In this document: piece by piece, positions 9,554 to 44,981 of the stretch
Position numbering within the stretch: the first letter of the stretch is position 1
Layout: the number at the start of each line of letters is the position of its first letter
Origin: an uncultured Gammaproteobacteria bacterium
Lineage (GTDB): Bacteria > Patescibacteriota > Patescibacteriia > Magasanikbacterales > JBBTQS01
DNA: 64,000 nt
Direction of reading: 5' to 3'
NCBI GenBank assembly: GCA_964627055.1
Contig: CAZVGV010000001.1
Span: 19,620 to 83,619, forward strand
Position numbers and translations under genes: made by a program
The notes under the pieces: generated by a model
The model's database searches: none
What the model saw: the letters and a program-made list of their open reading frames with translations, nothing else
What the model was told of the DNA's origin: nothing

Positions 9554-9778
9554 ATGCCAAAGCAAAAATCGACAAAACAGAAAATGTGCTACTTCTGCGT
9601 GAATAACAACACTGCAGTTGACTACACAGCGACCAACACCTTGCGCCGTTTCCTTTCTTCATACATGAAGATTGCTCCACGTCGCCGTTCTGGTCTCTGT
9701 GCTCTTCATCAGCGCAAGGTTGCAACCGCAGTAAAGCAGGCTCGCCAGATGTCGATTTTGCCTTACATGCCTCAGTAA
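9554..9778 (+). CDS. rpsR: 30S ribosomal protein S18
   Basis: 74 aa containing CYFC...RRFLS...G and a basic C-terminus, in conserved position after ssb. Confidence 0.9.
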   Translation: MPKQKSTKQKMCYFCVNNNTAVDYTATNTLRRFLSSYMKIAPRRRSGLCALHQRKVATAVKQARQMSILPYMPQ

Positions 9779-9810
9779 GAGCTGGATTCATCTCGTAATA
9801 AACACAAAAC

Positions 9811-9841
9811 AAACAGACCCCGGCAACGGGGTCTGTTTGTT
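9811..9841. terminator. Bidirectional intrinsic terminator (CAGACCCCG, GCAA loop, CGGGGTCTG)
   Basis: 9-bp GC stem with an A-tract upstream and a T-rich run downstream, between rpsR (+) and recA (-). Confidence 0.6.
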
Positions 9842-29747: not shown

Positions 29748-30732
29748 TATGGTCATTCAGCTCGCGAAACATCTCGCATCGAATCTCCTGAGCAAGCCAG
29801 AGTACGCACTAACACGTGATGGCTATGGTCATGGCGTGGTTGAGGCTGCAGAGAAAGATCCGCACATCGCGGTGTTGTGTTGTGATCTCACGGAGTCTAC
29901 GCGTTCGCACTGGTTCCGTGACAAATTTCCAGAACGATTTATTGAAGTGGGTGTAGCAGAGCAGAACATGGCTGGGATTGCTGCTGGAATGGCGGCGGAG
30001 GGCTACATTCCGTTCATTTCAAGTTATGCTGTATTCTCGCCGGGGCGTAATTGGGATCAGATTCGCGTATCACTCTGCTATTCCAATACCAATGTGAAGG
30101 TGATGGGCGCGCATGCGGGGATTTCGGTAGGACCAGACGGCGCCACGCACCAAGCGCTCGAGGATATGGCGATAATGCGCGTGCTGCCGAACATGGTTGT
30201 ACTTGCGCCGTGTGATATGGAAGAGACGCGCAAGGCGATTCATGCTGCAGCGCTCTACAATGGACCGGTGTATATTCGGTTTGCACGCGAGAAGACCGCA
30301 GTGATGACAACAGCAAAATCGCCGTTTGCCATCGGAAAGGCAGAAGTCTTTGCACAAGGTACAGATGTGACGATCGTGGCATGCGGACCGCTCTTGTACG
30401 AGGCGTTGCATGCAGCGCAATTGCTGTTGAAGCATGGAGTGCATGCGGAAGTAATTAACATGCCGTCGCTCAAGCCGTTTGATGAGAAGACATTGCTCAC
30501 ATCGGTCAAGAAAACTGGATGCGTCGTCACGGTTGAGGAGCATCAGATCATTGGGGGATTGTTCGGTGCGGTTGCTGAGACGCTTGCGCAGTCACATCCA
30601 GTACCGATTGTCCCGGTTGGTATGCATGATTCATTTGGACAATCCGGAACACCTGACGAACTTCTGGAATTGTACGGAATGCGCGCACAAAATATTGTTG
30701 CTGCTGCACGCGCTGCTATCAAGAAACGTTAG
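29734..30732 (+). CDS. Transketolase, C-terminal (pyrimidine-binding plus C-terminal domain) subunit
   Basis: FIEVGVAEQNMAGIAAGMA and later Tkt-C motifs. Overlaps the stop of the N-terminal subunit gene (GTG 29734 or ATG 29749). Confidence 0.88.
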   Translation: MSTNNMVIQLAKHLASNLLSKPEYALTRDGYGHGVVEAAEKDPHIAVLCCDLTESTRSHWFRDKFPERFIEVGVAEQNMAGIAAGMAAEGYIPFISSYAVFSPGRNWDQIRVSLCYSNTNVKVMGAHAGISVGPDGATHQALEDMAIMRVLPNMVVLAPCDMEETRKAIHAAALYNGPVYIRFAREKTAVMTTAKSPFAIGKAEVFAQGTDVTIVACGPLLYEALHAAQLLLKHGVHAEVINMPSLKPFDEKTLLTSVKKTGCVVTVEEHQIIGGLFGAVAETLAQSHPVPIVPVGMHDSFGQSGTPDELLELYGMRAQNIVAAARAAIKKR

Positions 30733-30741
30733 CCACATTGT

Positions 30742-31710
30742 ATGTTCGACATGATTACGTTGGGTGACGCTACGATCGATACCCTCATTGAGGTTGGTGA
30801 TGCGTCTGTTGCGTGTTCAGTGGATCGACGTAACTGCTTGTTGCAATTACGGTATGGAGACAAGTTACCAGTTGAGAACATGGCGCAAAAAGTGGCAGGG
30901 AACGCAGCGAATAATGCGGTTGGGTGCGCGCGATTAGGGATGCGAACTGCAATCCATACCATTCTTGGAGTCGATCAGAGTGGTGACGCAATTGTGCAGA
31001 CATTTGTAGAGAACAAAGTGTCACGAGAATTCGTTGAGCGCGATCGCAAACACGCTACCAATGCTTCGACGGTTATTAGATTCCAGGGAGATCGAACGAT
31101 TCTGGTGTATCACGCACCTCGCGCGTACAAATTGCCCAAGCTGCCGCGCTCGAAGTGGATCTACTTCACGAGTCTTGCTGCAGGGCACAAGGCGTACAAC
31201 GCGCAGGTTATCGCGCACACAGAACGCACTGGCACACGACTCGCGTATAATCCAGGTACGTACCAATTCCTCGAAGGCATCGATGAAGTAAAGAAGGTGA
31301 TTGCTGTGACACATGCACTCTTTGTGAACGTCGAGGAGGCACAACGTATTGTGGGAAAGAAGTCAGTGAATGAATGTCTGCGCGCATTGTATAAGCTCGG
31401 TGCTGCCATGGTTTTCATCACAGATGGCCCGAAGGGGGCAACGGCGTACGATGGTGAGGAGATGTACTTCATGCCGATCCTGCGTACGAAAGTGATAGAG
31501 CGTACCGGGGCAGGTGACTCATTCGCCGTCGGCGTAATTGCGGCGCTGAATGAAGGTGTCAGTATGGCAACAGCACTCACCTGGGGTGCGGCAAATAGTA
31601 GTAGTGTTATACTGCAAGTTGGGCCCCAAGACGGTTTGCTGTACCGCAACGAGATCGAAGCGTTCTACCGCAAATACGGCAAGGGGATTCGTCCGAAGAA
31701 GATTTCATAA
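30742..31710 (+). CDS. PfkB-family carbohydrate kinase (ribokinase/fructokinase-like)
   Basis: N-terminal GG-motif region (GGNAANNAVGCARLG) and C-terminal GAGDSFAVGVIAAL anion-hole/catalytic motif. Confidence 0.8.
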   Translation: MFDMITLGDATIDTLIEVGDASVACSVDRRNCLLQLRYGDKLPVENMAQKVAGNAANNAVGCARLGMRTAIHTILGVDQSGDAIVQTFVENKVSREFVERDRKHATNASTVIRFQGDRTILVYHAPRAYKLPKLPRSKWIYFTSLAAGHKAYNAQVIAHTERTGTRLAYNPGTYQFLEGIDEVKKVIAVTHALFVNVEEAQRIVGKKSVNECLRALYKLGAAMVFITDGPKGATAYDGEEMYFMPILRTKVIERTGAGDSFAVGVIAALNEGVSMATALTWGAANSSSVILQVGPQDGLLYRNEIEAFYRKYGKGIRPKKIS

Positions 31711-31720
31711 TTGGAGACGT

Positions 31721-32632
31721 ATGCGTGCAACACTTACCGATATTTTGCCCCACGCACAACTGCATGGGTATGCCGTTGGTGCATTTAATTTCAGTTCCAT
31801 GGAGACGGCGCAGGCAATTGTAGCTGCGGCGGAGCGTGCGAAGTCGCCTGTGGTGTTGCAGACGAGTGGCGGCGCAATTGAGTACGCCGGCATGGTGTAT
31901 CTGGGTGTGATCTCGTGGGTTGCATCGCAGTCAGTGAAGGTGCCAGTGGTAGTGCATTTGGATCACGGACATGATGTAAAGCTTGTTCGTGCAGCAATAC
32001 AGTCAGGTTACTACACAAGTGTCATGATTGATGCGTCGCATTTGCCATTCAAGGAGAATGTGAAGACGGTTAAGAAGATTGTGGACGAGGCACATGCTGC
32101 CGGAATCTCAGTGGAAGCAGAACTGGGCCCAATTCCAGGCAAGGAAGACAAGGTGAGTGTGAAGAATCGTGACGCGTTCTTTACAGACCCTGCGCAAGCC
32201 GCAGAGTTCGTGGAAATGACGGGGTGCGATGCGCTTGCTGTGTCAGTAGGAACAGCGCATGGTGCATTCAAGCATGCAGGGATTGCGGGGAAGGTGGATA
32301 TGAAACGTCTCGCAGCTATCGCGTCGGCAGTGAATGTGCCGTTGGTGTTGCATGGCGCGAGCAATGTGGATCCAAAGCTTGCAAAGAAAATGGGACTCGC
32401 AAAAGCAGAAGGTATGAGCGATAGCGATATCAAGAAGGCGATCAAGACTGGCATCACCAAAATTAATATTGATACAGATTTGCGATTGGCATATACAAGC
32501 GCATTACGCGCGGCGCTCACGAAGAATCCGCGTGAGTTCGATCCACGTGTGTACACTGATGTGGCACGCGATGCGGTACAGGGCGTGGTCGAGAAGAAGG
32601 TGCGCATGTTCGGTGGTGCGAGATCAGATTGA
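31721..32632 (+). CDS. fba: Class II fructose-1,6-bisphosphate aldolase
   Basis: Metal-binding HLDHG, GYTSVMIDASH, the EAELG and VLHGAS motifs. Conserved start MRATLTDIL; the ORF extends upstream to 31550. Confidence 0.88.
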   Translation: MRATLTDILPHAQLHGYAVGAFNFSSMETAQAIVAAAERAKSPVVLQTSGGAIEYAGMVYLGVISWVASQSVKVPVVVHLDHGHDVKLVRAAIQSGYYTSVMIDASHLPFKENVKTVKKIVDEAHAAGISVEAELGPIPGKEDKVSVKNRDAFFTDPAQAAEFVEMTGCDALAVSVGTAHGAFKHAGIAGKVDMKRLAAIASAVNVPLVLHGASNVDPKLAKKMGLAKAEGMSDSDIKKAIKTGITKINIDTDLRLAYTSALRAALTKNPREFDPRVYTDVARDAVQGVVEKKVRMFGGARSD

Positions 32633-32722
32633 ATTGCTTCGAAGCCTCACCCTGTTGGGTGGTTCTTTTGTTATTCTGGCGTTTTTGTCCCCATGTGCTA
32701 CACTTATAAAAACGTACTAAAT

Positions 32723-33466
32723 ATGAAAGATCTTGCTCCGCTTTTGCGCTCACTTGGCCTACTGGACAGTGAAATCAAAGTCTATGTTGCTGGCCTCACT
32801 CGAGGTGCCGGCACGATCCTGGATTTCACCAAGGCGACGCACTTGTCCCGCCAGGCAGTGTATACGGCGGTGGACGCACTTACTGACCGCGGCCTTTTTT
32901 CTAATGTAATGCGTGGGAAAAAGCGCTACTTCGCCGCAGAGCAACCCAACAAGCTCATTGCGTACGCGCATCGCTACCACCATGACGTGGCAACCAAGAT
33001 TGCAGACCTTGAACAGATGTTGCCAGAACTTACATTGCAAGCAGGTGGTGACAAGCCGATCGTTCGCCTCTTTGAGGGCAAGGAGGGGGTGCGTGCGATC
33101 ATGGAAGATTGGGCCAATACCGACTTCAAGGAAATGGATGAAATTGCGGACACGGACGCACTCTTCACAGTGTTAACACCGGAAGACCTTGCGCCTCTAC
33201 GCAAGATTCTTAAGAAGCGCGATGTGAAGGTTCGTGGGATGTACATGGGCAAGAAGCGGTCCGAAGGGACGGTTGGAGACTTGCATACCATCACGAGCAA
33301 AGAAGGGGAGTTCAAATCACATATTGGCGTGTACGGCGACAAGATTAACCTCGTCACGTTCGAGGGTAAGATGTATTCTGCAATTGTAGAAAGCAAACGA
33401 CTTGCTCAGGCAATGCGAACACTATTTCACCTCGCGATTGAGGGAGTGAAGGCTCAAAAAAAGTAG
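32723..33466 (+). CDS. TrmB-family (sugar-responsive) transcriptional regulator
   Basis: N-terminal winged helix (LGLLDSEIKVYVAGLTRGAGTILDFTKATHLSRQAVYTAVDALTDRGLF) plus a C-terminal effector domain. Sits directly downstream of the tkt-pfkB-fba operon. Confidence 0.7.
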   Translation: MKDLAPLLRSLGLLDSEIKVYVAGLTRGAGTILDFTKATHLSRQAVYTAVDALTDRGLFSNVMRGKKRYFAAEQPNKLIAYAHRYHHDVATKIADLEQMLPELTLQAGGDKPIVRLFEGKEGVRAIMEDWANTDFKEMDEIADTDALFTVLTPEDLAPLRKILKKRDVKVRGMYMGKKRSEGTVGDLHTITSKEGEFKSHIGVYGDKINLVTFEGKMYSAIVESKRLAQAMRTLFHLAIEGVKAQKK

Positions 33467-33476
33467 TAAAAAATGA

Positions 33477-33512
33477 GAAAGTCCAGTACGTTGTACGGGA
33501 CTTTCTTCGTTG
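33477..33512 (+). terminator. Intrinsic terminator after the trmB-family gene
   Basis: Stem GAAAGTCC / GGACTTTC with a 13-nt loop, followed by TTCGTT. Confidence 0.45.
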
Positions 33513-33722
33513 GAGTTGGAAGTGATGGTGATGGCGTACGCCGTGTTGTGTGGGGACACTACCCGCAGCCCATGACATTAGCCCTCCTCGTGCTGCAAAA
33601 ACGCTCCGGCAATATACCGTAAAAGCCGCGTGGACGCAGCTTCGGAAGCGCGCAACGTATGGCCGCACTTCATTACCCACGCTGGATCAACACTAGCATG
33701 CAATACAGGTGAGGTCAAGACG

Positions 33723-33746
33723 AAAAAACCGCGACAGACGTCGCGG
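33723..33746 (-). terminator. Minus-strand intrinsic terminator (CCGCGAC, AGAC loop, GTCGCGG, U-tract on the minus strand)
   Basis: Perfect 7-bp stem. Six A on the plus strand immediately 5' means six U follow the hairpin on the minus strand. Confidence 0.4.
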
Positions 33747-33772
33747 AAATAGGGGGGGTGAGCACGGGGTAT

Positions 33773-33820
33773 ATTTTTGTCAACTAAATACTTGACAAAA
33801 ATATATATTCTTGCTATAGT
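33773..33820 (+). promoter_or_regulatory. Consensus sigma70 promoter (TTGACA-17-TATAGT) inside an 11-bp perfect inverted-repeat operator (ATTTTTGTCAA-N8-TTGACAAAAAT)
   Basis: -35 TTGACA at 33792..33797 and -10 TATAGT at 33815..33820. The right palindrome arm overlaps the -35. Confidence 0.5.
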
Positions 33821-33969
33821 CGCTCTCGTACATATGAGGAGACGCGAGAATCCAGAGAAGGATTGTCGCGCGAGCATTCGATCCATGTTTCGTGGTGGTT
33901 ACGTGGTTCGGATGTTCACGCAACGATCGTATCTCATGCCCGGCGACCACGTGGTCGCTGGATTTTTTT
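33821..33969 (+). ncRNA. Candidate small transcript (~140 nt); alternatively a leaderless 45-aa ORF (33834..33971)
   Basis: Bounded by the consensus promoter above and an intrinsic terminator at 33942..33969 (GGCGACC, ACGT loop, GGTCGCT, then GGATTTTTTT). No Shine-Dalgarno before the ATG at 33834. Convergent with the spoU 3' end. Confidence 0.35.
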
Positions 33970-34432
33970 AGAAAAATCGAGCAATTGCGTATGCCAATCC
34001 GCCGAAGGCAACCGAGACATTGAGTGATTCCTTGGTGCCTAACATGGGCAGGTGCACCACGGTATCACACTGTGCAAGTTGTGGGCGGGTAACACCAGTG
34101 ACCTCGTTGCCAACCACGATTGCTAGTGGGAATTGAGGTGTCCAATTGCGATAGTCAATACTTGATTTTGTTTTCTCGAGTGCAACGAGAGTGTACCCGG
34201 CATTGCGTAGTTCGCGTAGGAGTGGCAAAGCAGTGGGGCGGTGTTCCCATGGGATAGTTCGTTCGGCACCAAGGGAGACCTTGTCAACGCGTGGGTGACC
34301 AGGGTGTGGGGTGTAGCCGGTTAGGTAGATTTTGCTGACTCCGATGGCATCAGCAGTACGAAAAAATGCACCGACATTGTGTGCGGAACGAATATTAGGA
34401 AGGATTAACACGATGGTGGGGTGGGGTGACAT
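33968..34432 (-). CDS. SpoU/TrmH-class RNA 2'-O-methyltransferase
   Basis: SPOUT motifs (VLILPNIRSAHNVGAFFRTADAIG; VVGNEVTGV; SLNVSVA). Confidence 0.8.
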   Translation of the reverse strand: MSPHPTIVLILPNIRSAHNVGAFFRTADAIGVSKIYLTGYTPHPGHPRVDKVSLGAERTIPWEHRPTALPLLRELRNAGYTLVALEKTKSSIDYRNWTPQFPLAIVVGNEVTGVTRPQLAQCDTVVHLPMLGTKESLNVSVAFGGLAYAIARFF

Positions 34433-34495
34433 GCATCAGTTGTACGCAATGTGCTCGTTGGTGTAAAGGGGGATGCGTGGTAGTATGTACTATGT

Positions 34496-35656
34496 ATGTT
34501 GTGGAAATCCGTAGTTCGAAAAGGAGTTGTGTCGGTGATGATGGTGTTTTGCATCACCTCTTCCGCTCTTGCACAAGCGCCAATAGATCCAAAGACGTAC
34601 GTGCCGAAGAATGATGTTTGGTATCGTGCTCAGGTACTTACTGTTGAAAATCAGACGGTAGAAAAGGAAGAGGATGGTACAGAGCGACTCATGCAGCGCG
34701 TGGAAGTGCAGATGAAAAGCGGTGATGAGTCTGGCCGTGTGCACGTGATCAATCATGGTGCAGACTTCGAGTTGCGCGAAGGAATACAGGTAACACCGGG
34801 TGAGTGGGTTGTGGTCATCAAGTCTGAAACATATGATGGCGCGAATCTCTCCGATGTATATCATATTTATGAGCCGTATCGACTGCCAGCGCTTCTTGTT
34901 GCTGGTGGTATTTTTCTCATTGCCGTGGTTTTTTTGGGGCGTTGGAAGGGACTCGGATCAATTGCAGGACTTGCGATTAGTCTTCTGGTATTAGTAAAGG
35001 GTGTTATTCCTTGGATTGTGCATGGAGGTAACCCACTTATCGCCTGTGTTGTGGGAGCTATTGTCATTGCGACCTGTGCACTTTTTGTTGCTCATGGATT
35101 CACGCGCCGTACTGCTATTGCGTGGGTGAGTACTGTTATAGCGTGTGTGCTGGCAGCTGGACTCGCGTACCTATTCATGTGGGCAGCACGCCTGTATGGC
35201 TATGGAAGTGAAGAGGCTTACTTTTTGAAGAGCGGTCTCCTTGCTACATTGGATCTGCGCGGGTTGCTCTTGGGGGGTATTCTCATTGGTTCACTTGGAA
35301 TTCTTGATGATATTACGACAGCGCAGGTTGCTGTAGTAGAGGAGTTACACCATGCAAATACTTCTCTCTCTCGTGCTGAATTGTATCGTCGGGGTCTGTC
35401 TGTGGGGCGTGAGCATATTGCGTCACTTGTGAATACACTTGCGCTTGCGTATACCGGCGCATCATTCCCGCTGATTTTGCTTACGGCAACAAATGAATAT
35501 CAACCGGTTTGGGCTGCGATGAATACAGAAGGTATCGCCGAGGAAATTATTCGAACACTTGTGGGTTCGTGCGCCCTCGTACTTGCAGTACCAATTACAA
35601 CCGCGTTAGCTGCTGGGTACTATGGCTCTCGAGCCATCGTCGAAGAAACGCACTAG
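34496..35656 (+). CDS. YibE/F-family integral membrane protein
   Basis: N-terminal signal and extracytoplasmic domain followed by about seven TM helices with the characteristic Gly-rich helices. Start may be the internal Met at 34538. Confidence 0.65.
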   Translation: MLWKSVVRKGVVSVMMVFCITSSALAQAPIDPKTYVPKNDVWYRAQVLTVENQTVEKEEDGTERLMQRVEVQMKSGDESGRVHVINHGADFELREGIQVTPGEWVVVIKSETYDGANLSDVYHIYEPYRLPALLVAGGIFLIAVVFLGRWKGLGSIAGLAISLLVLVKGVIPWIVHGGNPLIACVVGAIVIATCALFVAHGFTRRTAIAWVSTVIACVLAAGLAYLFMWAARLYGYGSEEAYFLKSGLLATLDLRGLLLGGILIGSLGILDDITTAQVAVVEELHHANTSLSRAELYRRGLSVGREHIASLVNTLALAYTGASFPLILLTATNEYQPVWAAMNTEGIAEEIIRTLVGSCALVLAVPITTALAAGYYGSRAIVEETH

Positions 35657-37022
35657 CACGCACATCGTCTTCGTTATATTGCAGTGCTGCATCGAGTGCA
35701 GCTCGATCGTTATTTTCAAGCCATTGTTCGTACCAAAAAATACTTTGGGTTCCACTGGATTGTGCGTTGCGCCATGAGAAGCCGAGGTACTTGCAAATGT
35801 CCTTGAGCGAGTAGAACGAGAGGGGAAAAATCACGCAGCGTTGTACTACTTCGAACAGATCGACGAGCCGTTCTTGGAATCGCTCGAGTGCAGGAGTTGA
35901 ACCATACTTTGCTGCGAGAAGCGCTACGTGGTGCTTTTCGTATGGCGCGTAATGAAAAATAGTGTAGGTGGCGGGCAGGGTCTCGATCCAGGCGAGGAAC
36001 TGCTTCCACATCATTGCTTCGTCACTGGGGTGCTCTGCAAGAAAGTGAATGTACTCGTCCTGTGTATCTCGTTCGATCAGGAAACCGAAGAGATATTCGG
36101 TATCAACGAGTGGGTCCGCTTCAATATCGAAATGAATGCGCAGCCCAGCATCAGCAACGTGTGGTTCGCGAACCATGTGTACACGCTGGTGGAGGAATGA
36201 CTCTGCTTGCAGTCGAATGTGCGCGAGTCGTTCGCGTGATACTCCTGGGATTGGTGAGATGAGCGCCGGGTCCATCATCGCTGCATCCTCGAGAGAATGA
36301 ATTGCATTACGTCGCAAGAGGTCGATAGAAAGTCGATCAATGTTGTAGAGCAGCGAAATATCTCGTGCCGTGGTGGCTCGAGACAGACACACCTGTGCCC
36401 ATGGTGATTGGAGGCAGCCGCGGGTGAGGGTAATGGGCGGTTCCTGGCCGTCAAGGATGCGTTCGATCTCTCGTCGTCGTGTGGTGAATCGGTCCATGGT
36501 ATCGCGTGGATCGAAGTACAGTCTTTCGCCTTGGATTGTGATAATGCCACCGCGAGGTGGTAGCGTTCCTTGCACCTCTTGCAACAGCAGTGCAAAAAAT
36601 GTGAGCTGGAGGCGTTGCACAGGCTTCATTTCGTGGCTGCTTTTGATCTCCACTGGCTCATAACAGTAGCGACCAAATGCAGAATCACCAGAACGACGGA
36701 GGAGGAGATCTGGTCGCCCGATCCACTCACGGTCTTCAATGGTCGCGGTAAGGACTGCTCCATGAATTGCCTCTACACCTGCGTACATCAGTGCGCGGGT
36801 CTCTTCGGCTGCTGCTGCGGTTGTAGTTGCAGTTACCTTTGTAGGCTGTAATTCACCAATGACCAGCTGCTCATGTACAACGCCTTGCTCGAGCAGTTTC
36901 TCCAAGAGTCCGCTCATCGGCGCACGATCCGCGTGGTTGCCATACACATCTAACCAAACCCAGTTCGGGCAGAATTCATAGTGGAGGAATTGGGACGCCG
37001 TGAGCGGGTGTCGAGGAGTCAT
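35595..37022 (-). CDS. TM0106-family RecB-like nuclease: N-terminal Cas4-like PD-(D/E)xK domain fused to a C-terminal RNase H-like 3'-5' exonuclease domain
   Basis: N-terminal YEFCPNWVWL Cys motif, GRPDLLL (motif II) and YEPVEIK (E-x-K). C-terminal IHFDIEADP DEDD-like motif. Confidence 0.65.
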   Translation of the reverse strand: MTPRHPLTASQFLHYEFCPNWVWLDVYGNHADRAPMSGLLEKLLEQGVVHEQLVIGELQPTKVTATTTAAAAEETRALMYAGVEAIHGAVLTATIEDREWIGRPDLLLRRSGDSAFGRYCYEPVEIKSSHEMKPVQRLQLTFFALLLQEVQGTLPPRGGIITIQGERLYFDPRDTMDRFTTRRREIERILDGQEPPITLTRGCLQSPWAQVCLSRATTARDISLLYNIDRLSIDLLRRNAIHSLEDAAMMDPALISPIPGVSRERLAHIRLQAESFLHQRVHMVREPHVADAGLRIHFDIEADPLVDTEYLFGFLIERDTQDEYIHFLAEHPSDEAMMWKQFLAWIETLPATYTIFHYAPYEKHHVALLAAKYGSTPALERFQERLVDLFEVVQRCVIFPLSFYSLKDICKYLGFSWRNAQSSGTQSIFWYEQWLENNDRAALDAALQYNEDDVRASAFLRRWLESHSTQQLTRL

Positions 37023-37026
37023 GGCA

Positions 37027-37695
37027 TTAGAACTTCAGGAGGTAATCCCATCGTTTCCAGAGTTCGGCTGTAGCGCGTACGTCGCGTAGGCAGTAGCGAG
37101 CAATATCGATGTATTTGCCGTCAGCATACATCGTACCAACTTGGTCGCCAGTTACACCTTCTTCCTTCGGGCTGCGGATGCCGAAGGCCCGTGCGTACAT
37201 GTCGAGATTGAATTTACGCGTGGCACCGTAGAACGTGAGCTGATCAAGCAGATCACAATGCATCTTGTAGTCGTAGCGGTAGGGAACAAGGTTGAGTGTT
37301 GGACGAACGTCGAGCATTGCGGAGCGCAGCATGAGCATTGGACCATCGAAAGATCTCCCGTTGAAGGTTACGATCGGAGCATAATGCTGCACGTCTTCCC
37401 AAAATTTTTCTAAGATAGTTTTTTCGTCTGCACAGATGTACTCTGCGCCATCTTCAACAAAGGAATCAATCTCTTTTCCTTCCGCACTGAAATACACTTT
37501 GCCCTTGTCTGAGAGTGGATTGAGCATGGCGATCGTGACAATGCGTGCGGTGGGTGCCCAGAGCGCAAGTGAGTCGCGGGTTCGATCGCGTGCCTCGTCA
37601 TCTTCGTCATGCTTGGTGAGATATTCCTGTTGGACCATTTCGAGGGATTCCCAGGGTACTCCGATGGTTTCGATATCAACAATAATGGGTTTCAT
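37027..37695 (-). CDS. DnaQ-like/PolB-exonuclease-like 3'-5' exonuclease (DEDD superfamily)
   Basis: N-terminal PIIVDIETIGVPW (Exo I D-x-E), FNGRSFDGPML (Exo II) and a C-terminal Y-x3-D-like region. Lies 4 bp from the upstream nuclease gene. Confidence 0.65.
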   Translation of the reverse strand: MKPIIVDIETIGVPWESLEMVQQEYLTKHDEDDEARDRTRDSLALWAPTARIVTIAMLNPLSDKGKVYFSAEGKEIDSFVEDGAEYICADEKTILEKFWEDVQHYAPIVTFNGRSFDGPMLMLRSAMLDVRPTLNLVPYRYDYKMHCDLLDQLTFYGATRKFNLDMYARAFGIRSPKEEGVTGDQVGTMYADGKYIDIARYCLRDVRATAELWKRWDYLLKF

Positions 37696-37756
37696 AGGGG
37701 TAGATTAGTGTGCGCTCCTCACTGGCATCCTAGCACTAGGACTTGCCAGATGAGAA

Positions 37757-38440
37757 GTGGTAGAGTGGGGACGTATGAAACTCGATCGAAGAGATAGAGC
37801 AAAACACGTGTTGAGCGTCCTCAAAAATGTGTATGCACAAGCGCGTGTTCCTGAGGCCTTCGTGCAGTGGTCCACACCGCTTGAACTTGTGGTGGCAACA
37901 ATGCTTTCTGCGCAGTGCACTGATGTGCGAGTAAATCTCGTGACGCGGGTGTTGTTCCAGAAGTATCGTACTGCTGCAGACTATGCGAACGCATCAGTAC
38001 CCGAGCTCGAACGCATCATTGGTTCGATTACATTCTTTCGTGCGAAGGCGCGGTATCTGCAAGGAATTGGACGTGTGTTGGTAGAGCAATACGGCGGAGA
38101 AGTTCCGAGTACTGTTGCAGCACTGATTACCTTGCCGGGTGTGGCGTATAAGTCAGCACATCTGATTATGGCCAAGGAGTTCGGTGTGCAAACAGGTGTT
38201 GCTGTAGATACGCATGTGACTCGTGTGGCGACACGTCTGGGGCTCTCACGAGGAAAGAACGCGATTGCAATCGCTGCTGACCTAGAGAAAATTTTTGGAA
38301 AAAATGATTGGCTCGACGTAAATGAGTTCATGATTCTGCATGGTCGAGCTGTGTGTCGAGCGCCCGTGCCGAAGTGTGGGGAATGCCCGGTGCGAGACGT
38401 ATGCCCAAGTGCACGACGCACCACTAAGAAGAAGTTGTGA
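37757..38440 (+). CDS. nth: Endonuclease III (DNA-(apurinic or apyrimidinic site) lyase / glycosylase)
   Basis: HhH-GPD motif (LPGVAYKSAHLIMAKEFG...VAVDTHVTRV) and a C-terminal 4Fe-4S cluster loop CRAPVPKCGECPVRDVC. Confidence 0.88.
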   Translation: MVEWGRMKLDRRDRAKHVLSVLKNVYAQARVPEAFVQWSTPLELVVATMLSAQCTDVRVNLVTRVLFQKYRTAADYANASVPELERIIGSITFFRAKARYLQGIGRVLVEQYGGEVPSTVAALITLPGVAYKSAHLIMAKEFGVQTGVAVDTHVTRVATRLGLSRGKNAIAIAADLEKIFGKNDWLDVNEFMILHGRAVCRAPVPKCGECPVRDVCPSARRTTKKKL

Positions 38441-39737
38441 GGCGTTCGAAGAACTGGTGTACGCGTGGATCCATCTTGATATCTGATGTGCGGATCGGTC
38501 TCAGGAGTGCGATTCCCTCAAGGCTCGTACATCGCGAAAGCGCAACATACACCTGACCGTGTGCGAACGCGCCACGGCCGAGGTCGATGACGACACGTTC
38601 GAATGTCTTGCCTTGGCTCTTGTGGATAGTGACAGCCCAGGCAAGACGCAGGGGGAACTGTCTGAATGAACCAACAGGCTCTGTCGTGAGTGCGCTGATG
38701 CTCGCATCGTAGGAGTAGCGGTGGATTTCCCAGCTATGCATAGATACAGTGACTTCATCACCCGTGGTGAGCTCAACGGTTACGGTGCTGGGTACGTGCT
38801 GGTCGTCTTCGCCAATTTTTTTTACGATACCGAGCGAGCCATTCACGTATCCCTCGCTTGCGTCGTTAACAAGTAACATGACTTGCGCACCTTTCTTGAG
38901 CGTGAGTGACTCAGCGGTTGGATACACGCGCGGGTCGAAGGTGCCACTCACTACGGCGCCGAACGTGTGTGCATCCTCATCAATTTCTGCGAGGCGAGCT
39001 GTGTTGATGGCATCAGCTGCAGCATTGGTTGCTGTGAGTACGATCGTGGTTTCATGTTCGGCAAGCGATCCATGATCTTCGATCCACTTGGCGTTGAGAG
39101 CCGCAAGATCTGCGTCAGTTGTGGTGTTGGTGCGAACGCGATTGAGGAGGTCGATGAATGTGGTATCGCGTTGGCGATAGATTTTTTCGAGCTGTACAAG
39201 TTCGAAATCCGTGCGTGCGAGTACATGCGCGTCGAAGAAGAATGGGCTCTTATATACCATGGTAAAGGTTTGCGCCTCCTCAGTACCGGAGACAACCGGC
39301 GGCAATTGGTACAAGTCGCCAATGAAAATCATTTGCACTCCGCCAAACGGCTCCTGCGAGCCGCGGTAGCGTCGCAGAAGTACATCTACGCAGTCGAGCA
39401 GCTCCGCACGCACCATCGACACTTCGTCGATAACAATGGTGTGCAATGCCTTGCAAAGAGATTTAAGATTCGAAGATAATTTTTCTTTGCCTGCCGAAAG
39501 CGGAGTAATGTGCGGAGGGATGCGGAAGAAGGAGTGGATTGTTTGGCCTTGTACATTGAGCGCGGCAACTCCAGTGGGCGCGAGGACAGCAACATTCTTT
39601 TTGGTGTGCAGGCGAAAATGCGTAAGCAGCGTAGATTTGCCGGTGCCTGCACGGCCGGTAATAAAGAGGTGTCGTGACGACGTCTCCATGAGATCGAGCG
39701 CGCGTTGGAATTGTGGATTGAAGTCGAGGGTAGGCAT
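38424..39737 (-). CDS. PIF1/RecD-like SF1B DNA helicase
   Basis: Walker A ITGRAGTGKSTLL, motif II IVIDEVSMV, AAA_30 plus UvrD_C-like organisation, C-terminal TIHKSQGKTF. Confidence 0.8.
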   Translation of the reverse strand: MPTLDFNPQFQRALDLMETSSRHLFITGRAGTGKSTLLTHFRLHTKKNVAVLAPTGVAALNVQGQTIHSFFRIPPHITPLSAGKEKLSSNLKSLCKALHTIVIDEVSMVRAELLDCVDVLLRRYRGSQEPFGGVQMIFIGDLYQLPPVVSGTEEAQTFTMVYKSPFFFDAHVLARTDFELVQLEKIYRQRDTTFIDLLNRVRTNTTTDADLAALNAKWIEDHGSLAEHETTIVLTATNAAADAINTARLAEIDEDAHTFGAVVSGTFDPRVYPTAESLTLKKGAQVMLLVNDASEGYVNGSLGIVKKIGEDDQHVPSTVTVELTTGDEVTVSMHSWEIHRYSYDASISALTTEPVGSFRQFPLRLAWAVTIHKSQGKTFERVVIDLGRGAFAHGQVYVALSRCTSLEGIALLRPIRTSDIKMDPRVHQFFERLTTSS

Positions 39738-39826
39738 AAAACACCGTGGTGGTTGGTGAGTATCAGCCTACCACGGGACAGGGTCTTGCGGAAGTCGTGT
39801 AGATTCGGTACAGTGTCCCCACAAAT

Positions 39827-39901
39827 CGCGGGTATTGTATAACGGCTATTATCTCAGTTTTCCAAACTGATGACGCGGGTTCGACTCCCGCTACCCGCTC
39901 C
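39827..39901 (+). tRNA. tRNA-Gly (anticodon UCC), CCA encoded
   Basis: Manual fold: acceptor GCGGGTA/TACCCGC, anticodon stem TCAGT/ACTGA, loop TTTCCAA (UCC), T-arm GCGGG-TTCGACT-CCCGC, discriminator U as in bacterial tRNA-Gly. Short, atypical D-arm. Confidence 0.75.
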
Positions 39902-40079
39902 AAACAGTATAAAATTTTGAGAAGTCCCGTTTCACTGCCCCGAGAACTTGAGGACAGTTACGAGATGGATAGAAAGTTGAAGGCACTGTCTGGCATGAGA
40001 TATGTGTTGTTTTTTGTGTTATGATGTTCAATGCATGGGGGAGCGTGATCCTAGGGTTACATTGTGAAAAAAGAATTCT

Positions 40080-41543
40080 ATGGAACGATTGTGCAAAATA
40101 TGTGGTGGCTACCATAGTCCAGGTCAGTGCACGAAGAAGGAAAATTCAGCGGAACTTAGTCCACTTGTCTTTGCCCCATTTGCCGAAAAGTATGCGGGTA
40201 AGGCTATTCTTGAATGTGTCCTCATGGCCGCTTCGGAGCTCGATGAGTATGAGTTACTAGTGAAGCAGAAGAGGCTGACCAATCATGAATTAGTTGAATA
40301 TCTTGGACTTATCGGATTTTTTGAAACCTATCCGGCAATATTGCAAGATGCAAACCAACAGTACAAAAAATACACAGAACAGCTAGACAAAGAATTGACT
40401 CGTAGTTATTCGGATCCGGCGGTTCGTAGAAGAAAAAAATACGACGGATTTGTGAGTGCGTTGTCGGCACCTGCAATCCTTGACCGCCCCGTTCTAAAAG
40501 AGGTCGTGGACGAACTTTTCTTTATCCAGAGAGATGAGATGGTGACAGCATGGCTCAATCAGATAGAACTTCCCAAACGAAGTATTTCTAAGGAAGGCGT
40601 CATCGATGTGACGCAGAAGGTTTTTCGTGAATGCGCCAAATGGTCGATCGCTTCGCAACAGAATAGAGATGATCTTTCGGCATATATTTTTCTCCGTAAG
40701 GTTGCCGAGGCATATGCATTTGCTTTAAATTTACAACAGAGCGGGGCGTACTCTGGAGAATTTGATACCGTAGCAGCGGAAGAAGCGAGCGATCTGCGAG
40801 TGGATGTTTTGAGTACAAGATTGCGGCCTGGCGTGTATGAATGTCAGGTGCCAGATGGAGTGCCTTGGATCACAGTCATGTATCTGGTGGTCCCCGAAGA
40901 GGGGAAGGAGCCATTTACTTGGGCTGGTGTAGAGGTAGAGTTAGCAGGTGACCCACAGGACAGTTCCAAGCTCACGCATACGTCTTGGCCTATTAGTGAA
41001 CTTACCAGAGAGTTGGGAGTCATGGGTTCTAAAATCACGACGTTGGGTTCGCTGTTTGAAAGGTATGGTCTAGAAAAAGAATATCAGCAATTTCAGCATG
41101 AAATATTTCGGTCGATTGCGTCCCTTATTGAATCATACCCAGAATGTATCTTAGATAGACAGCAAGAAACAGATGAATTGGAGAGAGCACTTGTTCAAGA
41201 ACCTGTACAGGAAGAAGATATGGATGCGCTACAGGTATCTCTTCCACGGGCTCAGTATAAAGAAGATGCGTTAGTGGCAGAGCGCCAACAGAAAAAGCAT
41301 GAGATCTTTCGTGAGATGCGAAACCTCTCTTTTGAGAGGACCATCAAAGCATTTCAGAGACTTGGAGTAGAAGTCAGGTACGGTGGCCGTCACATCAAGT
41401 TGGTGAAAATGGAAAACGGGCGAGAGCGTACCGTTCCGTTCATGAATCGTCATAGTAAGGGAATACATTATATGGCTCGTGTTGTGAGACAAGCCATCAA
41501 CATCTTGGGTCTGGATGAGCAGGAATTTGTTTCGGCGCTTTGA
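40080..41543 (+). CDS. Large hypothetical protein (487 aa) with an N-terminal CxxC...C zinc-ribbon-like motif and a C-terminal HicA/YcfA-like (mRNA interferase toxin fold) domain
   Basis: C-terminal 70 aa (SFERTIKAFQRLGVEVRYGGRHIKLVKMENGRERTVPFMNRHSKGIHYMARVVRQAINILGL) match the HicA pattern (K..L...G....R..GSHH......G....TVP.H...I....L..IL.Q.GL). Lower GC than flanks. An extended -10 TGTTATGAT lies upstream. Confidence 0.55.
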   Translation: MERLCKICGGYHSPGQCTKKENSAELSPLVFAPFAEKYAGKAILECVLMAASELDEYELLVKQKRLTNHELVEYLGLIGFFETYPAILQDANQQYKKYTEQLDKELTRSYSDPAVRRRKKYDGFVSALSAPAILDRPVLKEVVDELFFIQRDEMVTAWLNQIELPKRSISKEGVIDVTQKVFRECAKWSIASQQNRDDLSAYIFLRKVAEAYAFALNLQQSGAYSGEFDTVAAEEASDLRVDVLSTRLRPGVYECQVPDGVPWITVMYLVVPEEGKEPFTWAGVEVELAGDPQDSSKLTHTSWPISELTRELGVMGSKITTLGSLFERYGLEKEYQQFQHEIFRSIASLIESYPECILDRQQETDELERALVQEPVQEEDMDALQVSLPRAQYKEDALVAERQQKKHEIFREMRNLSFERTIKAFQRLGVEVRYGGRHIKLVKMENGRERTVPFMNRHSKGIHYMARVVRQAINILGLDEQEFVSAL

Positions 41544-41613
41544 AGATTTTTGGAACGTGGCAGAACGATCCTAGATGTCGGAAGTTTTGCAGCAAGTCGT
41601 GAAGGTATAATTT

Positions 41614-41656
41614 TTAAAAAAACAAGAGTGCGTCCCGTATGGACCGCACTCTTGTT
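41614..41656 (-). terminator. Minus-strand intrinsic terminator (12-bp stem AACAAGAGTGCG/CGCACTCTTGTT, U7 on the minus strand)
   Basis: Perfect stem with a 7-nt A-run on the plus-strand 5' side. Lies 3' of the decayed gene fragment. Confidence 0.5.
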
Positions 41657-41890
41657 GAATATCACGAGTTCCTCGAGCTGGATGTCACGCATGGTACCCG
41701 TGGAGTGCAAGTAGAACTGCGTACCAGGGAAGCACCCGCACAATAAGACGTTGATGTGATCGTCCTTGCTGGGTGTGGACGGCAGAGCCGTGCGGTGGCA
41801 CGTGATCAGCCGAGCCCATGGGGTGCGTCAGCGAGGAGTTGTAGTGTGGGTACAGAGATGGCAAGCCGAATTGTTTCGTGGTCATCACCT
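41640..41890 (-). pseudogene. Decayed fragment paralogous to the 3' half of the 42355..43023 gene
   Basis: About 80% nt identity over ~120 bp (41650..41770 versus 42373..42490). The minus-strand frame conserves GCFPGxQFxLxSxGxMRDIQxEExVxFNKS but the stop is lost and the upstream part is frameshifted. Confidence 0.45.
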
Positions 41891-41971
41891 AGGAGGGATT
41901 CAATTGCTGGGTCGAACTGTGGGGTGATGAAGTTTTGGATGTACTCACTCGGTACAGTGTCCCCACAAATC

Positions 41972-42043
41972 GCGGGTATTGTATAACGGCTATTATCTCA
42001 GTTTTCCAAACTGATGACGCGGGTTCGACTCCCGCTACCCGCT
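41972..42043 (+). tRNA. Second, identical copy of tRNA-Gly (UCC); CCA not encoded (CCG)
   Basis: 72-nt body identical to 39827..39898. Together with 22 bp of upstream sequence it forms a 97-bp perfect direct repeat (39804..39900 and 41949..42045). Confidence 0.7.
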
Positions 42044-42126
42044 CCGCTTCAAGAATACAGGTACAAGCCTTGCGTTATCCGTTCGCAGCGTGCATACTGC
42101 GCTTGTTAGTCATAATCCAAAAATAT

Positions 42127-42249
42127 ATGGATGGAGTAGTAGTAGAGCCTGAGGTACAGGAAGAGGAAGTAGCAGTGCCAGCAGAAATGCCAGCTGAAGA
42201 GACCGAAGAAGCTGCTGCCCCAGCAGCAGAGGAAGAAGCCGCAGCGTAA
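42127..42249 (+). CDS. Small highly acidic Glu/Ala-rich peptide (40 aa)
   Basis: MDGVVVEPEVQEEEVAVPAEMPAEETEEAAAPAAEEEAAA, immediately followed by a strong bidirectional terminator. The ORF is listed from 41935, but the upstream part crosses the tRNA. Confidence 0.3.
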   Translation: MDGVVVEPEVQEEEVAVPAEMPAEETEEAAAPAAEEEAAA

Positions 42250-42262
42250 GCTGACGCTAAAT

Positions 42263-42297
42263 AAAACAACCTTCATCAGAAGGTTGTTTTATTTTTC
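42263..42297. terminator. Bidirectional intrinsic terminator (12-bp stem AAAACAACCTTC/GAAGGTTGTTTT)
   Basis: A-tract upstream and ATTTTTC downstream, between the acidic peptide gene (+) and the 222-aa gene (-). Confidence 0.6.
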
Positions 42298-42354
42298 TTG
42301 GAAAGGACAACACACCACCGGTAGGTGATGCGTTGTGGGTAGGCTTGTGGATCA

Positions 42355-43023
42355 TCAGTAGCCGAAGTGGCTCTTGTTGAACATCACAAATTCCTCAGGT
42401 TGGATGTCGCGCATGACCCCCTTGGAGTTCAGGTCGAACTGCTTGCCAGGGAAGCACCCGCGCAAAAAGACGTTGATGTGTCCGTCTTTGCGGGTACAGA
42501 TTCGGAACACGAACGTGATCAGGTTCGTGCGCGGACTGGGGACACGTTCGTCGACGACGTAGTGCACGGTGGTGTGGTCGTTCACGTACACGATCTTCGT
42601 CTGAGTCCACGCAGGGAGAGGACGGTAGAGCCGTGCAGCCCGTGACCAGCCGACCCATTGTGTGGGATGTTTGATGGTCACACACCTCGTGGTTGATGTG
42701 GCGCCGGATTGTACATGACGCCGGACAATGCGTCCCACACTCCTGACCAGTTGTCGCTCGATTTCTGTATCGTCAAAAACATCTTCGGGGTGGCGCCAGA
42801 ATCGGAATGCTCCAGCTCGCATGTTTCGTCGGTAATTGAAACTCGATCGGCGCATCTTCATCGCGTTACGATATCGCACGACGATGTCGAATGGGACAGT
42901 GACTGGGATCGTGGAATCCTGGTTGTACGAACGTCGCATGACTGCACTCCTGCGGTTGATGTGGTGGTCTCCCCGAGAGCTCGGGAGAGGGAGTAGTACA
43001 TCAAAGATTGCTGGATTCGTCAA
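42355..43023 (-). CDS. Hypothetical protein (222 aa) with an Arg-rich basic N-terminal third
   Basis: Minus-strand frame supported by conservation with the paralog fragment at 41640..41890. N-terminus RRSAVMRRSYNQ...RYRNAMKMRRSSFNYRRNMRAGAFRFWRHP. No known domain. Confidence 0.45.
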   Translation of the reverse strand: MTNPAIFDVLLPLPSSRGDHHINRRSAVMRRSYNQDSTIPVTVPFDIVVRYRNAMKMRRSSFNYRRNMRAGAFRFWRHPEDVFDDTEIERQLVRSVGRIVRRHVQSGATSTTRCVTIKHPTQWVGWSRAARLYRPLPAWTQTKIVYVNDHTTVHYVVDERVPSPRTNLITFVFRICTRKDGHINVFLRGCFPGKQFDLNSKGVMRDIQPEEFVMFNKSHFGY

Positions 43024-43084
43024 TACGCACTATAAAATAGTCGCATTGTTCTTGAGCCATGAAAAATGGTATTTTAGAAAAAAG

Positions 43085-43846
43085 ATGAATGATATGGAAC
43101 AAGAACGAAAAGCAGCAGCCGAGCAGCAATGGATGGAAAGGGAACTAGGGGTAATTGTGCAAGCGACACAAGAAGTGCAAGATCGTGTAGTATCTACAAA
43201 AGAAATATCCGCTGGGCAACTGATGCATGAGGCGTGTGTGTCTGAAGTGTACGTAGGGGAGTTTATGGATTGTACGGATGGTGCGCTGCGTGTGTGGTCG
43301 GCGATGCCGCAGGAGGTGCGGGGAAAGAAAATCTATGTCCTCGAACAAGGTGCTATGATTTTTGTCCCCAGAACAGTGGGGGGTGACTCAGTACTTGTTT
43401 CCAATCACTTTTCTCGGTGTGCGGCGATTATAGTGAATGAAGCGCGTGGCACACTTTTTGGTCATGCCACTGAATCTGATCGAGAGAGTATAGAGAAATT
43501 GCTAGAGGGTATTGAGGGCGTAGTTGACGGGGAGCACACGGTTCTCTTGGTTCTGGCGGTGGCCGAAGCGCGAGACATGATGTATCTGTCAGATCCAACA
43601 GGTGCATGGACACAAGAGCGTGTGGCACAATTGCAGCAAGCACATCCGACAATGAGGATCTCTACGTATAGGAATACAGATTTTGCACCAACGTACATAG
43701 AGCAATACATTGCGAACGAAGGACTTCCAGAAACTGCCGTCATTGTGAAGGGGCAAGAACTCTATATGATCGGGACAGCATTAACGGATGAAGACGGGGT
43801 AGTACAGCAGACCTGTACAAGTGGAGCAATTACAAGAATAGCGTAG
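43085..43846 (+). CDS. Hypothetical protein (about 253 aa)
   Basis: Start at MNDMEQERK, preceded by an AT-rich promoter region; the ORF extends to 42836. No recognisable domain. Confidence 0.45.
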   Translation: MNDMEQERKAAAEQQWMERELGVIVQATQEVQDRVVSTKEISAGQLMHEACVSEVYVGEFMDCTDGALRVWSAMPQEVRGKKIYVLEQGAMIFVPRTVGGDSVLVSNHFSRCAAIIVNEARGTLFGHATESDRESIEKLLEGIEGVVDGEHTVLLVLAVAEARDMMYLSDPTGAWTQERVAQLQQAHPTMRISTYRNTDFAPTYIEQYIANEGLPETAVIVKGQELYMIGTALTDEDGVVQQTCTSGAITRIA

Positions 43847-43855
43847 TGGGAATCT

Positions 43856-44245
43856 ATGTATGGATCTAAGCCGCAGATTATTCTAGATGTTGGTTTTGAT
43901 TTTAGTTGGTCGTCACGTAAGGTTTGGGCACTAGATCTTCCTGTTGAGACGATGGCTATCACAGAACTTATTTGGCATTTCGGCATTCCATTCTGGGATA
44001 GCGAAGGAACTGACGAATATAATCTTACGCCGAACGACGTGCTAGCACATCCCGAAAAAGAGCCAACTCATTTCAGTAAAATTCAACACGCCGATCTCGC
44101 ATTCCCAATCGATATCATGGAGAATAAAGGCCGGTGGCTTATTCTCGACGGCCTCCATCGTCTCGCCAAGGCGTACATGCTTGGCATGACCGAGGTGCAG
44201 GTGCGCAAAGTACCGCGTGAGTTGATTCCTCTAATTGTAAAATAA
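43856..44245 (+). CDS. Small ParB/Sulfiredoxin-fold (ParB-like nuclease domain) protein
   Basis: Motif RWLILDGLHRLAKAYMLGMTEVQVRKVP matches the ParB N-terminal domain signature DGxHR...G...IPV. 129 aa, 9 bp after the previous gene. Confidence 0.45.
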   Translation: MYGSKPQIILDVGFDFSWSSRKVWALDLPVETMAITELIWHFGIPFWDSEGTDEYNLTPNDVLAHPEKEPTHFSKIQHADLAFPIDIMENKGRWLILDGLHRLAKAYMLGMTEVQVRKVPRELIPLIVK

Positions 44246-44324
44246 ATCGATACTCCGATGCGATACCGCGCAAAACGTCAAACATTCTTGTGGTTTTGAT
44301 GCATAGGCGCTAGGATCAGGGCAT

Positions 44325-44981
44325 ATGGATTACGCCTCAGTCGATCACTTTTTCGAACAAAAATTGCTGGCTAACGACGGTATTCCCGCACAAGTTACAG
44401 CTGCATGTGCTATCGCGGGATTGCCACCCTTTTGTGTGACACCAACACAAGGCAAATTTCTGCGTTTGCTCGCGCAGCTCAGCGGAGCGCGACGCATACT
44501 CGAACTCGGGACGCTTGGCGGGTATAGCACTGCGTGGCTTGCGTCTGCACTTCCAGTTGATGGACAACTCATCACGCTCGAGATTGATTCTGCGCGCGCT
44601 GCGATTGCGCGTGCGAATCTTGACGCAGTGGGGTTGGGCGATCGCGTGGAAATTCGTGTCGGATCGGCGATGGATACTATGCCGCAGCTCGTTGCAGAAG
44701 CTGGTGCGAAGTTCGATTTGATTTTTGTTGATGCGGACAAGCAGCACACACTGGATTATTTCCAGTGGGCAATACAACTCTCTCGGCCTGGAACGGTTAT
44801 TGTGGTGGACAATGTGGTACGTGATGGCGAGGTGCTCAACGCTGCAACCGAGGACAAGCACGTGCGCGGCATGCAACGATTTTTTGAGTACGTTGCAACT
44901 GAATTGCGCGTGGATGTGACGGCACTGCAGACCGTGGGTGCAAAGGGATGGGATGGGTTTGTGATTGGGGTGGTACGGTAG
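44325..44981 (+). CDS. Class I SAM-dependent O-methyltransferase (family 3, catechol/caffeoyl-CoA OMT-like)
   Basis: SAM motif ILELGTLGGYSTAWLA, DLIFVDADK, VVDNVV. 218 aa. Confidence 0.75.
   Translation: MDYASVDHFFEQKLLANDGIPAQVTAACAIAGLPPFCVTPTQGKFLRLLAQLSGARRILELGTLGGYSTAWLASALPVDGQLITLEIDSARAAIARANLDAVGLGDRVEIRVGSAMDTMPQLVAEAGAKFDLIFVDADKQHTLDYFQWAIQLSRPGTVIVVDNVVRDGEVLNAATEDKHVRGMQRFFEYVATELRVDVTALQTVGAKGWDGFVIGVVR

Follow-up and report, generated by a model that had tools for sequence, protein, structure and literature searches.

A HicA-domain protein encoded in a low-GC insert between duplicated tRNA-Gly(UCC) genes of a Patescibacteria genome

How did a 2-kb segment of low-GC DNA come to lie between two copies of a tRNA-Gly(UCC) gene, and what could be the role of the only intact gene that it carries? 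These questions are raised by a locus near 40 kb of contig CAZVGV010000001.1, in a stretch of 64,000 nucleotides that was analysed as a whole and is called the window below. The gene encodes a protein of 487 residues, p487, the C-terminus of which is a HicA-type domain. The best explanation of the locus as a whole, to which we assign a probability of roughly 0.55, is an insertion at a hotspot located at the 3′ end of the tRNA gene, carrying a cis-regulated HicA-domain protein. The features that define the locus are as follows.

39805..39901, plus strand: direct repeat copy 1, consisting of a native 23-bp leader with a conserved TACAGT and of tRNA-Gly(UCC) up to C75.
39828..39902, plus strand: tRNA-Gly(UCC) copy 1 with an encoded CCA (ARAGORN; Rfam RF00005, 58.6 bits).
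39902..41948, no strand: the insert between the repeats, 2,047 bp, 46.3% GC.
40080..41543, plus strand: the p487 gene, intact, 487 aa (open reading frame (ORF) list, family alignment and AlphaFold2 (AF2) model).
41949..42045, plus strand: direct repeat copy 2, consisting of the 23-bp leader and of tRNA-Gly(UCC) at 41972-42045, the next base being G and not A.

A repeat search of the window showed that positions 39805-39901 and 41949-42045 share 100% identity across 97 nt. The repeated unit contains 23 bp of upstream leader followed by the tRNA-Gly(UCC) through C75. A preliminary description of this locus had reported a perfect 97-bp repeat composed of upstream flank and tRNA, which is what we observe. 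However, it placed copy 1 at 39804-39900 instead of 39805-39901 (position 39804 is a T and position 41948 a C) and gave the flank as 22 bp, where 23 bp are measured. Its statement that identity stops at the tRNA 3′ end is accurate, the last shared letters being ..GCTCC, followed by A in copy 1 and G in copy 2. No third copy of either half of the repeat is present in the 64-kb window with up to 3 mismatches, where none is expected by chance. ARAGORN and Rfam agree that both tRNA-Gly(UCC) genes, 39828-39902 and 41972-42045, are intact. In the predicted fold of copy 1, the 7-bp acceptor stem is followed by U73 and then by CCA.

The DNA enclosed by the repeats is compositionally deviant. Its GC content (46.3%) compares with a mean of 51.7% (standard deviation 1.8) for 2,047-bp windows, only 0.5% of which are as low, and it constitutes the lowest-GC 2-kb stretch of the whole window. 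The GC content at third codon positions of the p487 gene is 0.43, compared to 0.48-0.69 in five annotated genes (helicase, HhH-GPD, exonuclease, methyltransferase and HD). The insert contains only p487 and the remnant of a pseudogene, and no integrase or transposase domain was detected among the ORFs from 35.6 to 44.2 kb. The earlier picture of an AT-richer segment (46.3% GC against the window mean of 51.7%) with one intact gene, one decayed fragment and no integrase in or near it is thus borne out: ORF 40080-41543 is intact, and the remnant matches ORF 42355-43023. A scan with the sigma-70 consensus revealed no promoter for p487.

Three parts of p487 can be delimited downstream of its N-terminal helical region, which spans residues ~35-244 in the AF2 model.

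40815..41153, plus strand: conserved α/β middle domain, aa 246-358, with the family motifs ISRxTGxL and FxxYG.
41154..41321, plus strand: acidic linker block, aa 359-414 (Asp plus Glu fraction 0.27; mean pairwise identity 14%).
41322..41540, plus strand: HicA-type domain at the C-terminus, aa 415-487, containing GGRH and residues His438 and His458.

The C-terminus of p487 is a HicA-type domain, as the preliminary description had claimed. Taken alone, the p487 sequence stays below the Pfam threshold, but profiles of the family and the predicted structure confirm the assignment. The Pfam HicA_toxin model (PF07927) matches 5 of 21 family members, with a best E of 5.1e-5. Compared with PDB sequences, the C-terminal family profile finds E. 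coli HicA (6hpb) as its best match (E 0.025). With hhalign, the same profile aligns to E. coli HicA with E 1e-5 and to a six-sequence HicA alignment with 94.4% probability and E 9.1e-8 over 68 columns. This alignment comprises five sequences from Table S1 of Gerdes 2024 and the same E. coli sequence. His438, within the GGRH motif, is found in 21/21 relatives and His458 in 18/21, and the counterpart of the GGRH stretch in E. coli HicA is the GSNH motif. The catalytic histidine appears to be retained in p487. To compare conservation along the chain, p487 was divided into five blocks: aa 1-24 (a variable N-terminal tail), 25-245, 246-358, 359-414 and 415-487. The HicA block is the best conserved, with a mean pairwise identity of 32% compared to 14-19% in the other blocks.

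The AF2 model calculated with a 21-sequence alignment reached a predicted local distance difference test score (pLDDT) of 75.6 and a predicted template modelling score of 0.66. The model obtained from the p487 sequence alone was poor outside the C-terminus (pLDDT 41.8). The predicted C-terminal domain has the topology α-β-β-β-α-α, which includes the α-β-β-β-α arrangement, similar to that of a double-stranded RNA-binding domain (dsRBD), by which HicA (Pfam PF07927 / COG1724) is recognized. The linker is predicted with pLDDT below 50 at residues 361-394, followed by a helix at 394-415. The N-terminal 390 residues match nothing in the PDB by sequence or by structure, HicB included. Likewise, a Foldseek search of PDB and viral structures with the full p487 model gave nothing at E≤0.001, and p487 has no match in PADLOC, PHROGs or NCBIfam. 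The remainder of the protein is therefore without a recognizable family, as first described, and it shows no HicB similarity. The CxxC...C motif noted at the N-terminus is present in p487 but is private to it and not a feature of the family. The possibility that the middle domain is a hidden HicB was considered and rejected at the sensitivity of the tools, profile searches against PDB, E. coli HicB and a six-sequence HicB alignment all being negative.

HicA domains fused to larger chains have precedents, contrary to the earlier claim of a previously undescribed arrangement. A recent survey distinguishes 14 HicA contexts, Classes 11-13 being monocistronic fusions (Gerdes 2024, mBio 15:e03293-23, PMC10865869). 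Class 13 proteins, exemplified by WP_067334119.1, are 340-440 aa long and combine a mostly α-helical N-terminus with a C-terminal HicA, while Class 14 corresponds to SMC-HicA (PMC10865869). The idea that the fused partner acts as a cis-antitoxin or sensor, by analogy with CapRel and EzeT, was also proposed there (PMC10865869). p487 resembles Class 13 in being monocistronic, in having no separate antitoxin gene, and in its large helical N-terminal region, C-terminal HicA domain and proposed logic. The AF2 model and the family alignment thus agree with the Class 13 architecture, with a size of 487 aa that falls outside the 340-440 range. The p487 family differs from Class 13 by its greater length (419-542 aa), its conserved α/β middle domain, its acidic disordered linker and its occurrence, where the source is named, in metagenome-assembled genomes (MAGs) labelled Patescibacteria or, in one case, Zetaproteobacteria. 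Homology between the two outside the HicA domain is unlikely, since no RefSeq-named protein is found among the 23 relatives of p487 at E≤1e-3; Class 13 was compared by its description only.

The comparison with canonical HicAB modules (E. coli HicA, 6hpb; T. thermophilus TTHA1913, 1whz) reveals a common α-β-β-β-α fold, a G-x-H histidine motif and a C-terminal 'LGI/L..eF' helix. However, canonical HicA is a free protein of ~60 aa encoded beside hicB, whereas the domain of p487 is the tail of a 487-residue chain in which no HicB is detectable. Neither an adjacent hicB gene nor a fused HicB domain, with its partial RNase H-like fold, was found for p487. CapRel(SJ46) and EzeT are likewise single polypeptides in which a non-toxin domain silences a toxin domain, and CapRel senses phage (literature cited in PMC10865869). 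Their toxin folds are unrelated to HicA (a RelA/SpoT-like pyrophosphokinase and a zeta kinase, respectively) and they share no sequence relationship with p487, so that the analogy is inferential. What is new here is a distinct and rare family, from Patescibacteria where the source is named, with an unrecognizable N-terminal fold, one member of which lies in an insert bounded by a tRNA duplication. As the general architecture was already catalogued by Gerdes (2024), this finding is an extension rather than a surprise.

The rarity of the family is apparent from an exhaustive phmmer search of 1.84 billion cluster representatives, which returned 23 relatives at E≤1e-3, of which 9 remain at a cutoff of E≤1e-10. 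A word-indexed protein search retrieved a single relative and, even with the family profile, only two proteins. Most relatives are near full length (419-542 aa), align with p487 from end to end and have the same layout; a few shorter entries are fragments, one of which bears the IMG label YcfA/HicA-like. All come from metagenomes or MAGs, and the source is named for two of them, Patescibacteria and Zetaproteobacteria (the latter a MAG bin, protein P0002). Searches of phage, plasmid and IMG/VR sequences gave no relatives. Ten genomic contexts of homologues were examined; none of them contains a gene for HicB or for an integrase, nor does any partner gene recur, which indicates that the family gene stands alone and is mostly chromosomal. 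Its distribution is sporadic, and the nearest relative of the present genome lacks it at the syntenic locus.

Some of these neighbourhoods are conserved. In two MAG species the family gene starts 4 bp past the valS stop codon within the synteny HD-valS-p50x-T2SSE (L090, 3525-7515; L094, 3516-7524), an arrangement that suggests co-transcription with the valyl-tRNA synthetase gene. Another homologue is divergent from the gene of the CCA-adding enzyme, another adjoins murB with a tRNA-Thr 104 bp downstream, and another is near dnaG-rpoD. One homologue lies ~2.3 kb from an AbiEii gene.

In a sponge-microbiome MAG labelled Zetaproteobacteria, a diversity-generating retroelement (bAvd and reverse transcriptase) is located 0.9 kb upstream of the P0002 gene (L003, 237-2805). 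Its repeats are at 780-892, the presumed variable repeat at the 3′ end of a 221-aa gene, and at 1269-1381, the presumed template repeat. Diversification of P0002 by this element was considered and rejected, the variable repeat being within another gene.

How might such a protein work? The N-terminal 390 residues would hold the HicA RNase inactive and so take the part of the antitoxin HicB, which is missing here. The RNase would then be released by a signal, for instance infection, and RNA cleavage would be followed by growth arrest. We consider that p487 has a slightly better than even chance of being such a cis-regulated toxin, with RNase activity, autoinhibition and a role in defence as its presumed properties. 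Alternatively, p487 could be a lineage-specific RNA-binding or RNA-processing factor that uses its dsRBD-like HicA domain in ordinary RNA metabolism. This would agree with the housekeeping neighbourhoods of the homologues (valS at 4 bp in two species, the CCA-adding enzyme gene, murB and dnaG-rpoD) and with the lack of any defence or mobile-element match. However, a family so extremely sparse (23 clusters among 1.84 billion representatives), and missing from the syntenic locus of the closest relative, is not what such a factor predicts. Moreover, the N-terminal region evolves fast (14-19% identity) while a histidine is kept at the catalytic position in every member, and the p487 gene is housed in a compositionally deviant insert. 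We therefore regard a role in ordinary RNA metabolism as unlikely. A more ambitious version of the cis-regulated toxin sees the whole family as a single-gene abortive-infection or immunity system of the Candidate Phyla Radiation (Patescibacteria). A new sensor or antitoxin fold, made of the helical region and the α/β domain with the ISRxTGxL motif, would gate the HicA RNase through the acidic tether, and the gene would spread as integrase-free cargo by recombination in the tRNA gene that it carries. This extended proposal is speculative and, in our estimate, quite improbable.

The origin of the insert was addressed by comparison with a related genome, which was sought with the adjacent Pif1-type helicase as query. 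Groundwater from Hainich provided the nearest genome found, a Patescibacteria MAG (JBBTQS010000003.1; locus L005), whose helicase is 86% identical at the amino acid level. Positions 29580-39901 of the window are collinear with L005 at 74-79% nucleotide identity, and L005 holds a single tRNA-Gly(UCC). The upstream flank of copy 1 (39700-39804) is orthologous to the L005 flank, whereas copy 2 has only the 23-nt leader in common with it. This leader (GGTACAGTGTC..CACAAA) is conserved in L005 and is therefore native chromosomal sequence rather than a foreign attP. On the other side, the window DNA from 3 bp past tRNA copy 2 (TCAAGAAT...) is orthologous to L005 DNA distal to an insert of its own, and this counterpart sits 1.87 kb downstream of the L005 tRNA. 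The sequences to the left of copy 1 and to the right of copy 2 thus both have orthologues at a locus with a single tRNA, and the two outer junctions are ancestral. The 1.87-kb L005 insert is unrelated to that of the window and its ORFs have no family match; conversely, the window insert has no counterpart at the L005 locus.

Since different DNA is present at the exact tRNA 3′ end in the two genomes, the site is variable, and the 3′ boundary of tRNA-Gly(UCC) is a variable hotspot. Metagenome contigs L104 and L105 show the same state as L005, with a single tRNA and another insert at the same boundary, and form one related lineage with it. A metagenome scan with the tRNA core yielded 15 loci, of which two, both of the L005 lineage, have the helicase flank; the other 13 are in other contexts. 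A relative of p487 is absent from all 15.

Other differences were noted around these tRNA genes. CCA is encoded in copy 1 and at the 13 more distant loci that share its tRNA core, as opposed to CCG in copy 2 and in the tRNA of the L005 lineage. The repeat starts between two conserved hexamers, TTGCGG and TACAGT, that are separated by a 17-nt spacer. TACAGT in the leader of copy 1 may be a -10 box, and if TTGCGG and TACAGT are indeed -35 and -10 boxes, tRNA copy 2 would retain the -10 box only. The L005 insert opens, directly after the tRNA-Gly, with a long inverted repeat, AAAAAGAATTCTCCCTCGGAG ... CTCCGAGGGAGAATTCTTTTT (~9560-9821, reverse strand). The 7-mer AAGAATT occurs at both ends of this inverted repeat and could be a target-site duplication.

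For the window, we propose that recombination within the tRNA region added a unit of ~2.14 kb, comprising the insert and one tRNA copy with its 23-bp leader. A single crossover, either site-specific or homologous, of the chromosome with circular or related DNA of the order X′-leader-tRNA-p487 (X′ being the pseudogene remnant) would leave the tRNA duplicated on either side of a low-GC cargo. Because no recombinase gene remains, the segment would now be fixed cargo rather than an active element. Like tRNA-targeted islands, this locus has a repeat that ends at the tRNA 3′ end, a compositionally deviant insert and a site that is differently occupied in a relative. Unlike them, it has no integrase, its repeat is made of the whole tRNA and 23 bp of native leader instead of only a 3′ segment, and some of the insert has a paralogue in the adjacent chromosomal DNA. 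This last property involves the features below.

41621..41656, no strand: strong hairpin separating p487, after its stop codon, from the pseudogene 3′ end (-22.6 kcal/mol, z -6.1).
41649..41825, minus strand: pseudogene remnant X′, corresponding to the 3′ part of ORF X, with an internal deletion of ~110 bp.
42127..42249, plus strand: acidic small ORF of 40 aa, in the ancestral flank outside the insert (blastn to L005rc 13352-13544 and alignment).
42355..43023, minus strand: orphan ORF X, 222 aa at its longest and 194 aa as called, parent or paralogue of X′.

Positions 41649-41772 of X′ share 82% nucleotide identity with 42371-42494 (124 nt), corresponding to 73% amino acid identity over 40 codons. 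A second block, 41777-41825, aligns with 42620-42664 with a score of 25, the maximum after shuffling being 18. Among 5.8 billion proteins, ORF X matches only its own shorter gene call, and it has no family match in Pfam, PADLOC, NCBIfam or PHROGs. The hairpin at 41621-41656 is flanked by an A-run on the plus strand, that is, a T-run on the minus strand, and therefore looks like the terminator of the minus-strand remnant.

It follows that each tRNA copy has the same order downstream, variable DNA and then X sequence (X 3′ end, X middle). Given that the repeat holds a native leader and that the insert tail is paralogous to its downstream neighbour, a local duplication could replace integration as the event. 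An old tandem duplication would have copied the leader, the tRNA, the spacer and the 3′ part of X. The upstream X would then have decayed, and p487 would later have been inserted into, or have replaced, the spacer after copy 1. Selection and gene conversion would keep the 97-bp tRNA segment identical. The common order of leader-tRNA, variable DNA, X 3′ end and X middle is in line with such a duplication, which also predicts a native 23-bp leader. Moreover, X′ probably arose within the lineage, as the orphan X is found only in this organism. However, X′ and X have diverged by 18%, yet the leaders are identical. The leader is not strongly constrained, since it differs between L005 and the window at 4-5/23 positions (~20%), and we calculated that the chance of no change over 22-23 bp at 18% divergence is ~1%. 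Thus the duplication requires gene conversion, the tract of which would have to stop precisely where the tRNA ends. The arrival of p487 at the tRNA 3′ end would still need an insertion event of its own, and no trace of the small acidic ORF is found after copy 1. For these reasons we consider a tandem duplication rather unlikely, and retain the insertion at the tRNA 3′ end.

The assembly itself was also considered as a source of the arrangement. p487 is encoded on NCBI contig JACCDM010272542.1 (GCA_013565575.1), and a Logan contig of 2,107 bp corresponds to the insert with 30 nt of the repeat at each end, i.e. the k-1 overlaps of an assembly with k=31. In this assembly the break falls precisely on the repeat, and integrated and circular forms would give the same graph. 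The chromosome could accordingly have one tRNA, with the 2,144-bp unit being a free circle or a strain variant that was joined to it through the 97-bp repeat. However, the submitted contig passes through both repeats, with both outer junctions orthologous to L005. In addition, the gene is recorded on two contigs of 50-200 kb, and the longest recorded contig of the cluster is 483,558 bp. Finally, a circle of 2.1 kb would carry no replication gene, and the homologues of p487 are chromosomal. An artefact or a free episome is thus very improbable.

Several observations weigh against an insertion carrying a cis-regulated toxin. The insert locus has neither an integrase nor inverted repeats, and the tail of the insert has a paralogue past tRNA copy 2. 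The mobility put forward in the preliminary description is supported by the variability of the site, with a different insert in L005, but not by a clean empty site in the same species: none was found, the species-specific 26-mer spanning leader and tRNA having 0 matches in JGI metagenomes. Pfam HicA_toxin, searched with p487 alone, gave E 0.036 and 14.6 bits, below the cutoff of 27. No PADLOC, PHROG, phage or plasmid match connects p487 with defence or mobile elements. Lastly, the presence of homologues at valS, murB and dnaG-rpoD resembles stable chromosomal content and not defence islands.

Patescibacteria have tiny genomes with few recognized defence or toxin systems. If the proposed reading is correct, p487 adds to them a single-gene HicA system with a novel regulatory module, and would offer a tractable case of HicA RNase control without HicB. 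The tRNA-Gly 3′ end takes up different cargo in sister lineages with no recombinase nearby, which bears on gene flux in reduced genomes.

The DNA on both sides of the insert presents further features. The acidic small ORF at 42127-42249 (MDGVVVEPEVQEEE...AAEEEAAA) is followed by a terminator hairpin at ~42259-42294 (-19.3 kcal/mol, z -6.2), and its conservation in L005 indicates that it is probably a real small-protein gene. Upstream of the repeats, the block 35595-39737 is kept in L005 and encodes a 475-aa Cas4-like/RNase H-like protein, a 222-aa PolB-exonuclease-like protein, an HhH-GPD glycosylase and the Pif1-type helicase. Downstream, a second lineage-specific segment (42296-44322) lies between the acidic small ORF and a conserved methyltransferase gene (44325-44981). 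It contains ORF X, an ORF of 253/336 aa without a family and an ORF of 129 aa, and is not found in L005, where only ~630 bp are present. The 129-aa ORF matches phrog_17560 (E 1.5e-10), and its motif LILDGLHR resembles, in our reading, that of ParB/sulfiredoxin-type proteins.

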